NCBI GenBank assembly: GCA_963832095.1
Contig: CAWHSW010000009.1
Coordinates: 14,994 to 78,993 of the forward strand
Length of the DNA: 64,000 bases
Direction: 5' to 3'
DNA from: an uncultured Actinomycetes bacterium
GTDB taxonomy: Bacteria; Actinomycetota; Actinomycetes; Streptosporangiales; Streptosporangiaceae
The notes beneath the pieces were generated by a model. It was not told the DNA's origin. It worked only from the letters and a program-made list of their open reading frames with translations, and ran no database searches. A program made the position numbers and the translations under genes. Of this stretch, positions 27,455-30,718 are shown piece by piece (the first letter of the stretch is position 1; each line of letters starts with the position of its first letter).

Positions 27455-28249
27455 TTACCCTGCATCCAGATCGGCGTCCGGCGTTGCCCACGCCGCCTCA
27501 TCCAGATCGACTCCGGCACCGGCCGCGTCGATCCCTTCCTGCTCAATGGCCTCCCGGACGATCCGGTAAGCCACCGGAGCCGGGTAGCCCTTCCTGGCCA
27601 GCAGGCCGGTCAGCCGCCGGATCCGGGTGGGCAGCGGCTTGCCCCGGCTGGCCCGCATCGCCTTGGCCACCAGCCGCCGGGCGGTCGCCAGCTCGTCGGC
27701 CGGGTCCAGTGCGCTGACCGCCGCGTCGATGTGCTGGCCGTCCACGCCGCGCTGCTTGAGCTCCGCGGAGAGCGCCCGGCGGGCCAGTCCCCGGTTGTGG
27801 TGCCGGGACTCGACCCAGGCCCGGGCGAATGCCGCGTCGTCGATCAGGCCCGCGTCGGTGAACCGGGCCAGCACCGCCGCGGCCGCCTCGTCCGGCACGC
27901 CGCGACGGCGCATGGCGCTGGCCAGCTCGGTCCTGGTCCGCGGCCGGCTGGCCAGCAACCGCAGGCACAGCTCCCGGGCGCGCTGCACGGGGTCCCTGGG
28001 CTCCCCGGCTTGCTCCGCGCCACTCTCGGTGCCACCTGCTTCAGCCAGGGCGCGGTCACGGGCCGCAGAATCGCGCTTGGCCGGAGCGCCCTCCGCGACT
28101 GGAGAGTTGCCACGGGCCGTGGGCCGGTTCCGTGCCGCGCCGCCCGCTCCGGCCGTGGCGCTGCCGCTGGCCGCCGCCAGCGCGGCGGCCAGTGCAGCGC
28201 GGGCCGTCGCCTGGCGTTCGCTGGTCCCGGCCTCCCGGTCAGGCACCAC
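27455..28249 (-). CDS. recX: Recombination regulator RecX (with an Ala/Gly-rich N-terminal extension)
   Basis: [56 protein letters not shown]... three-repeat RecX core. The GTG start overlaps the recA end by 11 nt. Confidence 0.88.
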
Positions 28250-30506
28250 CGCGTGGGCCGGTGATGCTGGTCACGGACGCCCCGGGGGCCTTCCCGTTCC
28301 CGGCCTTGCCGGCCGGGGCGGTGCCTGGCGCCACGGGGGCCGCCGGGGGCACGGGAGGCGCGGCGCCGTCCTTGGTGGCCTCCGCGTCCAGGCGGGGCCC
28401 GACGCCGAGCTTCTCCTTGATCTTCTTCTCGATCTCGTTGGCCAGGTCGGGATTGTCCTTCAGGAAGTTCCGCGAGTTCTCCTTGCCCTGCCCGAGCTGG
28501 TCACCCTCGTAGGTGTACCAGGCACCGGACTTGCGCACGATCGACTGCTCGACCCCGAGGTCGATAAGGCCGCCTTCCCGGCTAATCCCAAACCCGAAGA
28601 GGATGTCGCATTCGGCGACTTTGAAAGGAGGTGCCACTTTGTTCTTCACGACTTTAATCCGGGTCCGGCTGCCCACTGCCTCGGTGCCGTCTTTAAGCGT
28701 TTCGATCCGGCGCACATCCAGCCGTACCGACGCGTAGAACTTGAGCGCCCGCCCGCCGCTGGTGGTTTCCGGGCTGTTATGCACCATGACGCCGTCGACG
28801 AAGTAGTTGTGCGATCCCTCGACCTCGATGTCGAACCGGTTCATCGACCTCGTGCGCGGCTTGACGTGGACGTCCAGGATCCTGGCTGGCACCAGGTGCA
28901 TCTCGGGCTCCGCGAATTCCGGCTCTACCCGGAACCGGCCACGGAATCGCGGCAGCAGCTTGTACTCCATCGAGGGGTGCACGTACGGCGCGATGAGCCG
29001 CTGGAATTTCGCCGAGGCCTCGGTGGTGAACTGGAGGACAGCCATGCCGCGCGCGCCCCGCTCGGTGAGCTTGACGTCGAGCCGGCGGGTGTCCCGCAGG
29101 TAGTCCACCAGCCGGTCCCGGGACCCTGGGCTCATCGCCTGCACGCAGATCTCTATCCGGCCGGTGCCACCCTGGGTGCGCTCCTGGACGCCCTTCGACC
29201 GGAGCGTGAAGCACCCGTCGTCCAGGTACCAGACCGCGAGGGCGAACGGGGTGAGTGCCTTCAGGTACTCCCAGCTGAGGTGCTTCTGGCCGTCCCCGAA
29301 GTACACCGCTTCCCGTAGCTCGGCCAGTTCCGGGAGCGGGCTCAGGTCGGCGAAGACCGCGCCCTTGGCGTTGGCCGTCCGGGCGCAGCCGATGTTCCCG
29401 AGCAGGCTGACCTTCCAGTCCAGGTAGTCCGCCTGGGCGGCGCCGTGCCCCATCCGGAACCGGGTACCTGACCGGCCGCGGAGGTTCGGCGAGAGGCTGC
29501 CGTCCCCCATCAGCGCGCCCAGGATGAGCTGGATCTGCTGCCCGCTCAGCTTCCGCGGCCCGGCCAGCAGGACCCGGTCACCGGCGATCAGCTCGCCTGC
29601 CTCGTGCCAGCCGCCGGGGGTCCGGACGAGGTGGTTCTCCGTCGCGGCGAACTGGGCCCTCCCGTTCCCACCCGACTTGGCCACGGTGAACTGGAGGAAG
29701 CGCTCGGCCGGGCCGTTGTTGAACCAGTTGACGATGCGGCGCGGGACGGCGCGCCCGGTGTCCGGGTCGTAGGACAGCACCTCGACATCCCGGCGCTGGT
29801 TAACGATCTTGCCGATCTTCTCCTGCGTGCCGTCGGCCAGGGTCACCCTGGTCGAGTACGACATGCAGCCGAACATGACGCCGACCTTCTCCCGCAACTG
29901 GTTGATGAAGATGGCGGTGGTCTTGGTCTGGTTCAGCGCGCCGGCGAGCTTGCGCAGGGCCTGCGACATCAGCCGGGCCTGCAGGCCGACGTGGCTGTCT
30001 CCCATCTCGCCCTCGATCTCCGCCCGGGGCACCAGGGCGGCCACCGAGTCGATGACGATGACGTCGACCGCCCCGGAGCGGATCAGCATGTCCGCGATCT
30101 CCAGGGCCTGCTCGCCGGTGTCCGGCTGGGAGACGAGCAGCGCGTCGGTGTCCACCCCGAGGTTCTTGGCGTACTCCGGGTCCAGGGCGTGCTCGGCGTC
30201 GATGAACGCGGCGATCCCGCCCGCCTTCTGCGCGTTGGCCAGGGCGTGCAGCGCGAGGGTGGTTTTCCCGCTCCCCTCGGGCCCGTAGATCTCGACCACC
30301 CGGCCGCGGGGCAGGCCGCCGATGCCCAGCGCGACGTCCAGCGCGATGGACCCGGTCGGGATCACCTCCATCGGGGGCCGGCCCTCTTCGCCGAGCCGCA
30401 TGATCGACCCCCGGCCGAACTGCCGCTCGATCTGGGCCAGCGCGGTCTCCAGGGCCTTATCCCTGTCACCCCCGGTCCTGCTGACCATCCTGTCGCTGCC
30501 TGCCAT
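28239..30506 (-). CDS. recA: Recombinase RecA precursor (213-aa N-extein + 364-aa intein + 178-aa C-extein)
   Basis: [12 protein letters not shown] Walker A, ...[13 protein letters not shown] | C...VHN | [23 protein letters not shown]. The exteins are collinear with canonical RecA. Confidence 0.95.
28776..29867 (-). mobile_element. RecA intein with a LAGLIDADG (dodecapeptide) homing-endonuclease domain
   Basis: Block [14 protein letters not shown]; block B TENH; LAGLIDADG motifs [11 protein letters not shown] and [10 protein letters not shown]; block [22 protein letters not shown] followed by Ser+1. 1092 nt, in frame. Confidence 0.9.
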
Positions 30507-30557
30507 GGAAACTCCCGTCCGGGTTCAGGGATGCTTGCTGGTTCAGTGCCGGTCCAG

Positions 30558-30579
30558 ACGCTACGCGGCAGCACCGACA
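30558..30579 (-). promoter_or_regulatory. RecA-NDp-type (PafBC-dependent, LexA-independent) promoter motif upstream of recA
   Basis: The minus strand reads TGTCGGTG-ctgccgcg-TAGCGT. This matches the mycobacterial consensus tTGTCRgtg-N8-TAnnnT, 52-73 nt upstream of the recA ATG. Confidence 0.6.
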
Positions 30580-30656: not shown

Positions 30657-30670
30657 CGAACAACTGTTCG
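30657..30670. promoter_or_regulatory. LexA SOS box (actinobacterial type)
   Basis: CGAACAACTGTTCG palindrome (consensus TCGAAC-N4-GTTCGA) ~150 nt upstream of recA, between the DUF3046 gene and recA. Confidence 0.75.
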
Positions 30671-30718
30671 ACCATGAACCCAACACGCCGGATCCGGGCC
30701 CGGAATTCTGCCGCGGGC

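Follow-up and report, generated by a model that had tools for sequence, protein, structure and literature searches.

The locus analysed here raises the question of what interrupts the recA gene of an uncultured soil actinomycete, and whether the interrupting element is still gained and lost by its hosts. The gene lies in a stretch of 64,000 nucleotides (nt) of contig CAWHSW010000009.1 (positions 14,994 to 78,993; assembly GCA_963832095.1) from an uncultured Actinomycetes bacterium of the Streptosporangiaceae, which is called the window in the following. Its recA open reading frame (ORF) encodes 755 amino acids (aa), 364 of which form an insert. The data make it highly probable that this insert is a full-length class-1 intein of the RecA-b or Mycobacterium leprae type, in which a Hint splicing domain with a nested I-SceI-like LAGLIDADG endonuclease is placed in-frame within loop L2 of RecA. 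It would be an old and widespread resident of the Actinomycetes, which mostly co-diverges with recA and is still gained and lost in the clade of the window.

Anatomy and allele of the insert

The recA precursor is encoded at 28239..30506 on the reverse strand, as are all features described below, and comprises 755 aa plus the stop codon. The insert occupies 28776..29867, from Cys1 to Asn364, exactly where the initial annotation had placed a 364-aa insert. It separates an N-extein of 213 residues (29868..30506), which ends in ...REKVGVMFG and contains an unbroken Walker A motif GPEGSGKTT, from a C-extein of 178 residues (28239..28775), which forms residues 214-391 of mature RecA. In precursor numbering, residue 213 is the last of GVMFG and the intein runs from 214 (Cys1) to 577 (Asn364); Ser+1, residue 578, is encoded by AGC at 28773-28775 and opens the reading SPETTSGG. 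The exteins join to a normal RecA of 391 aa, as had been proposed, and this product is 97% identical to an intein-free RecA of equal length (P0121). The Pfam RecA match (E 2.5e-134) is split exactly around the insert, and RecA_C was matched as well.

Both ends of the insert are recognized as splicing regions. The NCBIfam models for intein N- and C-termini, TIGR01445 and TIGR01443, are above their cut-offs, and a sub-threshold Pfam Intein_splicing match spans precursor residues 221-577. The N-terminal Hint subdomain (intein residues 1-110; 29538..29867; TIGR01445 E 4.6e-11) contains block A with Cys1 (29865-29867) and block B, T76-E-N-H79 (TENH; residues 76-79; 29631-29642). The C-terminal Hint subdomain (residues 322-364; 28776..28904; TIGR01443) contains block F with D346 and H353 (28800-28841) and block G, VDGVMVHN (residues 357-364; 28776-28799), with H363 and N364. 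Blocks F and G align to the M. tuberculosis (Mtu) RecA intein, and in the comparison with PDB sequences the first 100 and last 28 residues of the insert matched the Mtu RecA mini-intein with an E-value of 4e-10, while the middle matched I-SceI weakly.

This middle part is a LAGLIDADG_2 homing endonuclease domain (PF03161, E 2.9e-35), which covers intein residues 113-288, corresponding to precursor residues 326-501 (29004..29531). Like the RecA match and those of the two terminal models, this match lies well outside what could arise by chance. Here, LAGLIDADG motif 1 (residues 114-124; 29496-29528) provides D122, and motif 2, (LA)VWYLDDGC (residues 210-219; 29211-29240), provides D216 and D217. 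Within an alignment of 40 sequences, the complete class-1 set (C1, T76-x-x-H79, D346, H363-N364 and Ser+1) is invariant, and so are N78, H353, G121, D122, G123, D216 and D217. Cys1, TENH, both dodecapeptide motifs, the terminal VHN and Ser+1, all named in the initial annotation, are thus present, and the motif coordinates were confirmed by back-translation to the window.

An AlphaFold2 model of the intein was computed from the 40-sequence alignment (mean predicted local distance difference test, pLDDT, 84.7; predicted template modelling score, pTM, 0.78). In a Foldseek search against the PDB the model matched the endonuclease-bearing inteins TliVMA, PI-SceI and PI-PfuI, and it matched I-SceI and I-WcaI with a template modelling (TM) score of 0.70 over ~211 columns. 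The splicing domain of Mtu RecA was found at a root-mean-square deviation (rmsd) of 1.6-2.0 Å over ~102 residues, and the N- and C-terminal parts of the model can be fitted to the inteins of Mtu RecA, Ssp DnaB and Npu DnaB with an rmsd of 1.6-3 Å. The predicted helices 109-120 and 207-217 end in the LAGLIDADG motifs, followed by G-D122-G and D216-D217-G, respectively, as in double-motif, monomeric LAGLIDADG endonucleases with their αββαββα fold. The model therefore describes a canonical intein of two parts, in which an I-SceI-like endonuclease is set into a Hint domain, and the proposed LAGLIDADG intein with intact splicing and endonuclease residues is backed by Pfam, NCBIfam, the invariant residues, the model and Foldseek alike. 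Base composition does not mark the insert out, since the GC content at third codon positions (GC3) is 0.94 in the intein vs. 0.91 in the exteins; the intein thus appears fully adapted to the composition of the genome.

The insertion point is the one of the M. leprae-type RecA intein (RecA-b, PI-MleI), which has reportedly been known since the work of Davis et al. in 1994. The surrounding sequence, GVMFG(S/N)PETT(T/S)GG, represents loop L2 of RecA, which binds DNA. For the retrieval of real database entries, an M. leprae intein sequence was used as bait only, and no conclusion rests on this bait. It retrieved RecA of M. lepromatosis (P0242), the sister species of M. leprae, of Mycolicibacterium flavescens (P0284), of M. 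simulans and of Mycolicibacter heraklionensis (P0332, with the NCBI name 'Mle RecA intein'). In these four entries the junction reads GVMFG/C...HN/SPETTTGG (slashes mark the splice points), Cys1 is residue 206 and the intein has 364 aa. The mycobacterial inteins are 68-73% identical to that of the window with zero gaps over 364 residues. The record of M. leprae itself in full length was absent among the named matches; a 446-aa Logan fragment (P0337), 98% identical to the bait, lacks the C-terminal junction. By its shared junction and gap-free alignment, the intein of the window belongs to the same allele as the mycobacterial RecA-b inteins, beyond the mere use of the same site.

The M. tuberculosis site is a different one, as the initial annotation had stated. 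In NF007072, the profile of the intein-containing M. tuberculosis RecA, the N-extein of the window aligns to positions 5-209, so that the insertion lies at ~209/210, whereas the N-terminus of the window intein aligns to positions 252-353, which correspond to the M. tuberculosis intein. This alignment indicates that both inteins are homologous in their splicing domains but reside at different sites. The M. tuberculosis-type site VVKNK/VAPPF (28623-28652) is uninterrupted in the window, which therefore does not hold the RecA-a allele.

Distribution, gain and loss

RecA inteins had been regarded in the initial annotation as classically mycobacterial, and one in another actinobacterial lineage would then have been of interest as a novelty. 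The database comparison gave a different picture. Against 5.8 billion proteins, the intein yielded more than 5,000 matches at E <= 1e-5, and the top 120 are all RecA precursors with 78-97% identity, some of them labelled Streptosporangiaceae. With one genome per species of the Genome Taxonomy Database (GTDB), at least 355 genomes encode a relative. The best 80 of these 355 show 76-99% identity and derive mostly from Streptosporangiaceae or unclassified actinomycete metagenome-assembled genomes (MAGs), and the labels of the nearest MAGs likewise place the host of the window in the Streptosporangiaceae; they also take in Acrocarpospora, Sphaerisporangium, Streptomyces, Amycolatopsis, Halopolyspora and MAGs of the Micromonosporaceae and Pseudonocardiaceae. 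All 80 loci have the junction G[VI]MFG/C...HN/SPETT, and the intein is exactly 364 aa long in 77 of them. Relatives are annotated by NCBI as 'intein-containing recombinase RecA', and 56 RecA inteins in Actinobacteria, Cyanobacteria and Proteobacteria have been counted before (Novikova et al., 2016; PMC4760082).

The RecA-b intein is therefore no mycobacterial speciality, as many Streptosporangiaceae and further actinomycetes have it as a standard element. The premise of novelty fails because the intein is common across actinomycete species, which, as the initial annotation had itself foreseen for this case, lowers the novelty but not the identification. The intein of the window is an ordinary addition to a well-known allele that is widespread in the lineage, and no unusual mechanism was seen.

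Several related recA genes contain more than one intein. A second intein of ~437 aa at the RecA-a site, VVKNK/C...HN/CAPPF, was found in at least nine loci (L006, L014, L015, L018, L020, L036, L057, L062 and L065), only 38 codons downstream of the RecA-b intein. For inteins that lie next to each other, mutual interference with homing has been reported (PMC10643990). A further intein interrupts the P-loop (GPEGSGK/...HN/TT), which is unbroken in the window, and occurs in two types, one with an Ala start (ALALDTPIPTP...CVPTHN, class-3-like) and one with a Cys start (CLTADTYVW...GVLSHN). P-loop and RecA-b inteins are combined in L011, L017, L019, L030, L064 and L070, and all three sites (P-loop, RecA-b and RecA-a) are occupied in L015, L018 and L062. 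In L011 and L017 the C-extein reads VVKNK/CSPPF without an intein at this point, while intein-free alleles have V, M or L at the position of the Cys. This Cys may have been left behind by a RecA-a intein that was lost, because it is the +1 nucleophile that such an intein requires.

One of the related loci, L051, is a 2.7-kb contig from a MAG labelled Candidatus Dormiibacterota. Its intein and extein both group with the actinomycete MAGs L033, L043 and L054; since both trees agree in this placement, the contig is probably mis-binned and no evidence of transfer across phyla.

Next to the many occupied alleles, closely related alleles without intein exist. The spliced 391-aa RecA used as query retrieved intein-free RecA proteins with 97%, 95% and 94% identity over the full length. 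The closest of them is encoded in the locus L081, which is fully syntenic with the window (lhr, DUF3046, recA, recX, rny). RNase Y of L081 is annotated as a single product of 539 aa, whereas the Lhr gene (1,161 residues) is cut off by the end of the locus, so that of these two only RNase Y is complete there. Within the extein tree, empty alleles are interspersed with occupied ones. The extein clade of the window (support 97/95) comprises five empty and six occupied alleles, and its well-supported branches require four or more changes between both states. Gain and loss of the intein thus continue in this clade, because intein-free alleles of up to 97% identity stand among the occupied ones.

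The codon of Ser+1 supplies a further marker. Among close relatives it is TCN in all 11 empty alleles and AGY in 72 of 77 occupied alleles. As this codon abuts the intein, it is a tightly linked marker, and its distribution shows that a precise deletion of the intein was not the origin of any empty allele sampled. A more general rule, that AGC at Ser+1 is specific to intein-bearing alleles, was rejected, since it fails in the broad background of empty alleles (TCN 15, AGY 16, Asn 28); the codon is kept as a linkage marker only.

As the genome of the window is metagenome-assembled, the insert might in principle be an assembly artefact or chimera, or the intein might be splicing-dead and recA effectively a pseudogene. 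Either is extremely improbable. Contigs from four independent soil studies carry the allele of the window with 0-1 mismatches over 900 nt, which argues against an artefact, and a 99% identical copy resides on L001, a contig of 3.5 Mb from the MAG of an uncultured actinomycete that probably belongs to the same species. Furthermore, the ORF is unbroken, the splicing residues are intact and invariant, and the ratio of nonsynonymous to synonymous substitution rates (dN/dS) is far below 1 in the intein and in the exteins.

The same soil runs also hold contigs with an empty site, the joints of which have short anchors (22-37 nt). These contigs probably stem from related organisms and are not evidence of polymorphism within one population. 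Since occupied and empty contigs were recovered from the same runs, both kinds of allele meet in the same communities. A scan of the metagenomes for recA revealed no close relatives, the best match being 88% identical.

The comparison of the window with L081 revealed a footprint at the insertion site. Over 1,176 nt, 53 differences separate the spliced recA of the window from the recA of L081, and 25 of them lie between -139 and +61 of the junction. In a 900-nt core alignment, the identity of both genes is 97.4% outside the segment -150..+60 and 87.1% inside. Within this segment L081 matches L087, an empty allele that is more distantly related and was taken from another data source: at informative sites inside, L081 agrees with L087 22 times and with the window eight times, whereas outside the numbers are four and 56, respectively (Fisher P = 1e-10 for the contrast). 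L087 shows the same kind of clustering against its nearest occupied relative, L004, with 27 of 55 differences inside the patch where 12.8 are expected.

The shared patch reads CTA AAT CAA ACT AAA ACC ACC GCC ATT TTC ATT AAC CAG CTT AGG GAA AAG GTA GGG GTC ATG TTT GGC/TCT CCT GAG. Compared with the normal sequence of the clade, 18 of its 26 codons are changed; all changes are synonymous and nearly all are from G/C to A/T at third positions, so that GC3 is 0.71-0.73 in the patch vs. 0.96. The clade-specific amino acids LNQTKTT, EKV and TTSGG are kept, and the patch was therefore not acquired from a distant low-GC recA. This pattern indicates that the DNA of the patch diverged under a constant protein and was passed between backgrounds by recombination. 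Most economically, these alignments would be read as a gene conversion in which the intein gave way to an intein-free segment.

A more far-reaching reading would be an ongoing arms race, in which a synonymous block of ~75-140 nt acts as an 'empty-site cassette' immune to the endonuclease, is carried by gene conversion from one recA background to another and erases the intein on its way. The patch occurs in two independent empty alleles, L081 and L087, and the rest of each is closest to intein-bearing alleles; it is carried by only two of the 11 close empty alleles. We regard the arms race as a tentative idea that is rather less probable than its absence. Alternatives remain, namely that the patch is the scar of an error-prone break repair, that it is a co-conversion tract, or that it has another cause, given the A/T-rich flanks of some occupied alleles. 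The notion that A/T-rich flanks mark empty, immune alleles only was discarded, because the occupied loci L006, L012, L020 and L051 are A/T-rich there as well, with a different sequence. An exact-pattern scan of the metagenome contigs found no copy of the recoded patch.

Selection, homing and expression of the precursor

Whether the endonuclease still drives homing can be approached by the selection that acts on it. In comparison to 72 related loci, the median dN/dS is 0.17 for the N-terminal Hint part, 0.17 for the endonuclease domain, 0.08 for the C-terminal Hint part and 0.12 for the RecA extein core. The endonuclease is thus under purifying selection and is kept as strongly as the splicing domain. 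According to the homing-cycle model (Gogarten and Hilario, 2006; PMC1654191), an endonuclease that does not home should decay, therefore a maintained endonuclease would be expected only while homing goes on.

Alternatively, the intein could splice while its endonuclease no longer homes, being conserved for folding or splicing. The element would then be a vertically inherited passenger, and the empty alleles would never have had the intein or would have lost it by ordinary recombination. In line with this, the intein tree mostly follows taxonomy, with the mycobacteria as a separate clade (100/100), and the synonymous divergence (dS) of the intein correlates with that of the extein (rho 0.48) and is usually equal or larger. 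It follows from tree and dS that the element mostly travels with its host gene. The only candidate for an incongruence between families, the grouping of Streptomyces inteins with Acrocarpospora and Sphaerisporangium, was dropped as a case of transfer, since the extein data do not reject the same grouping (approximately unbiased, AU, test, p = 0.21). A single outlier dS pair, which had suggested recent long-range horizontal transfer, turned out to be an artefact of the P-loop intein in L017. Furthermore, no relative of the intein above 30% identity was found in phages or plasmids, and a phage or plasmid as vector of its spread is rejected on present data.

On the other side, the low dN/dS of the endonuclease and its catalytic Asp residues, which are invariant across 40 to 80 sequences, are not what the homing-cycle model predicts for an endonuclease that has ceased to home. 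Mini-inteins without endonuclease splice, as the Mtu mini-intein structures illustrate, therefore an endonuclease is not needed for splicing. In addition, the at least four changes of presence and absence fall within one tight clade. On balance, a passenger without homing is rather unlikely. With respect to the horizontal spread considered in the initial annotation, the extein tree bears out a turnover within the clade, while the intein tree mirrors taxonomy for the most part and long-range transfer is not supported.

Several points weigh against the interpretation as an intein that is still homing. The dS of the intein tracks that of the extein and is almost never far below it, and neither the dS comparison nor the tree and AU test revealed a clear recent long-range transfer, so that the case for current homing comes down to the presence/absence pattern and one recombination footprint. 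The purifying selection on the endonuclease domain could also be due to a structural role in splicing and not to nuclease activity. The splicing competence and endonuclease activity of this allele, as well as the direction of each gain or loss, are inferred. Finally, mutagenesis of the M. leprae intein PI-MleI is said to have placed the second catalytic Asp at the equivalent of D192/193 (AVYFGDGQK) and not at the WYxDDG motif. In the window, this region corresponds to intein residues 187-195 (29283-29309). D192 lies in a β-hairpin turn of the model and not at the end of a LAGLIDADG helix, and it is outside the invariant and near-invariant columns of the 40-sequence alignment. D216 and D217 are invariant and end the second LAGLIDADG helix in the model, as in I-SceI. 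The published assignment of the second Asp in the M. leprae intein may therefore deserve a second look.

For expression of the precursor, three elements were read from the sequence upstream of recA on the reverse strand. The first is a LexA (SOS) box, TCGAACagttGTTCG, at 30657..30671; the actinobacterial LexA consensus is TCGAAC-N4-GTTCGA. The second, TGTCGGTG-N8-TAGCGT at 30558..30579, is a putative damage-promoter motif of the RecA-NDp / PafBC type. A Shine-Dalgarno sequence, GGGAG, follows at 30512-30516. The motifs would fit a damage-inducible expression of the precursor. Downstream, recX (27455..28249, reverse strand; NF001061 E 3.3e-71) overlaps the 3' end of recA by 11 nt, and the same arrangement is present in the intein-free locus L081. 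In mycobacteria recX follows recA, too (PMC3062782).

The following course can be proposed. The gene would be transcribed from a damage-inducible promoter region and translated into the 755-aa precursor, which would be inactive as RecA because its loop L2 is split by the intein. Cys1 would undergo an N-S acyl shift, helped by Thr76 and His79 of block B, and the N-extein would be moved onto the hydroxyl group of Ser+1. Subsequently, Asn364 would cyclise with the help of His363 and Asp346 of block F and free the 364-aa intein, and an O-N shift would produce the mature RecA of 391 aa. Splicing would thus be an obligatory extra step before active RecA is formed. The endonuclease, with Asp122 and Asp216/217 at the ends of its LAGLIDADG helices, would cut an intein-free recA at the site encoding GVMFG/SPETT, and recombinational repair would copy the intein into the cut allele.

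Such an obligatory step could also have been co-opted as a conditional post-translational switch of RecA, in which splicing waits for a cue of stress (oxidation, metal or temperature, for example) and thereby adds a regulatory layer to the SOS response. The insertion in the functionally critical L2 loop with its presumably inactive precursor, the LexA-box and RecA-NDp-like motifs upstream of recA and the long-lived, widespread occurrence of the intein in the lineage are compatible with this idea. Conditional splicing has been documented for RadA and DnaB inteins as well as for the RecA intein of M. tuberculosis (PMC11377839, PMC4513877, PMC6195587), which counts in its favour. However, no sensor is indicated by the sequence: the noncatalytic cysteines C161, C219 and C241 sit in the endonuclease domain, away from the splicing centre in the domain layout of the model. 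Very close relatives with a 97% identical RecA lack the intein, which speaks against an essential regulatory role. A conditional switch is therefore improbable.

The locus represents a well-populated natural system, in which hundreds of occupied and empty alleles exist at every level of divergence and co-occur in the same soils, with up to three intein sites in one recA and with a homing site that bears at least one clear footprint of recombination. This makes it useful for studies on the homing cycle, and possibly on target-site immunity, in free-living bacteria. What remains of interest is this footprint of recombination and recoding, together with the recA genes of related MAGs that hold several inteins. 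For annotation, recA ORFs of 750-1,650 aa have to be expected in this lineage, and inteins should be removed before RecA phylogenies or marker-gene pipelines are run.

Comparison with known systems

The closest known system is the M. leprae-type RecA-b intein of mycobacteria. It shares with the intein of the window the RecA host, the insertion point GVMFG/C...HN/SPETT, the length of 364 aa, the chemistry of Cys1, TxxH, HN and Ser+1 and the LAGLIDADG_2 type. This agrees with the initial annotation, which had named the insertion point as that of the RecA-b allele. In contrast, the host of the window is an uncultured, Streptosporangiaceae-like soil actinomycete and not a member of the Mycobacteriaceae. 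The mycobacterial inteins form their own clade apart from that of the window, and ~30% of the residues differ, mainly in the endonuclease domain and the linker.

In M. tuberculosis, the RecA intein (RecA-a, PI-MtuI; PDB 2IMZ, 2IN0, 3IFJ, 5I0A) resides in the same gene and is a class-1 intein with Cys1 and a terminal HN as well. Its Hint domain is homologous to that of the window with ~33% identity, in addition to the E-value and rmsd given above. However, it occupies its own site after VVKNK, uses Cys instead of Ser as +1 nucleophile and has ~440 aa with a LAGLIDADG_3 endonuclease (PF14528) in place of the I-SceI-like LAGLIDADG_2 domain.

The endonuclease domain itself resembles the monomeric enzymes I-SceI and I-WcaI from mitochondrial group I introns (PDB 1R7M, 5A0M, 6X1J). 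Residues 113-288 of the intein share their fold and PF03161 membership at 18-20% identity, including two LAGLIDADG helices with an acidic residue at the end of each. In the window, however, the domain is nested in a Hint domain and made within the host protein, and it is neither free-standing nor intron-encoded.

Outside the actinomycetes, two more distant systems make use of the same region of the recombinase. The UvsX-like recombinase of Erwinia phage pEa_SNUABM_17 (L089) contains a Hint plus LAGLIDADG intein at the exactly homologous point, AVMFG/C...VHN/SPE, but this intein is only 26% identical to that of the window. A RecA intein of Acinetobacter plasmids has the same full-length Hint plus LAGLIDADG architecture, but with 25% identity, an insertion three residues downstream (GVMFGDPT/C...HN/CTPGG) and Cys+1; this shifted type occurs in 111 Acinetobacter plasmids, among them pA1296_1 of Acinetobacter baumannii (L088). 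Since the inteins of the phage UvsX-like protein and of the plasmid RecA are located at or next to the same loop, the L2 loop is a recurrent target of inteins across the RecA/UvsX family.

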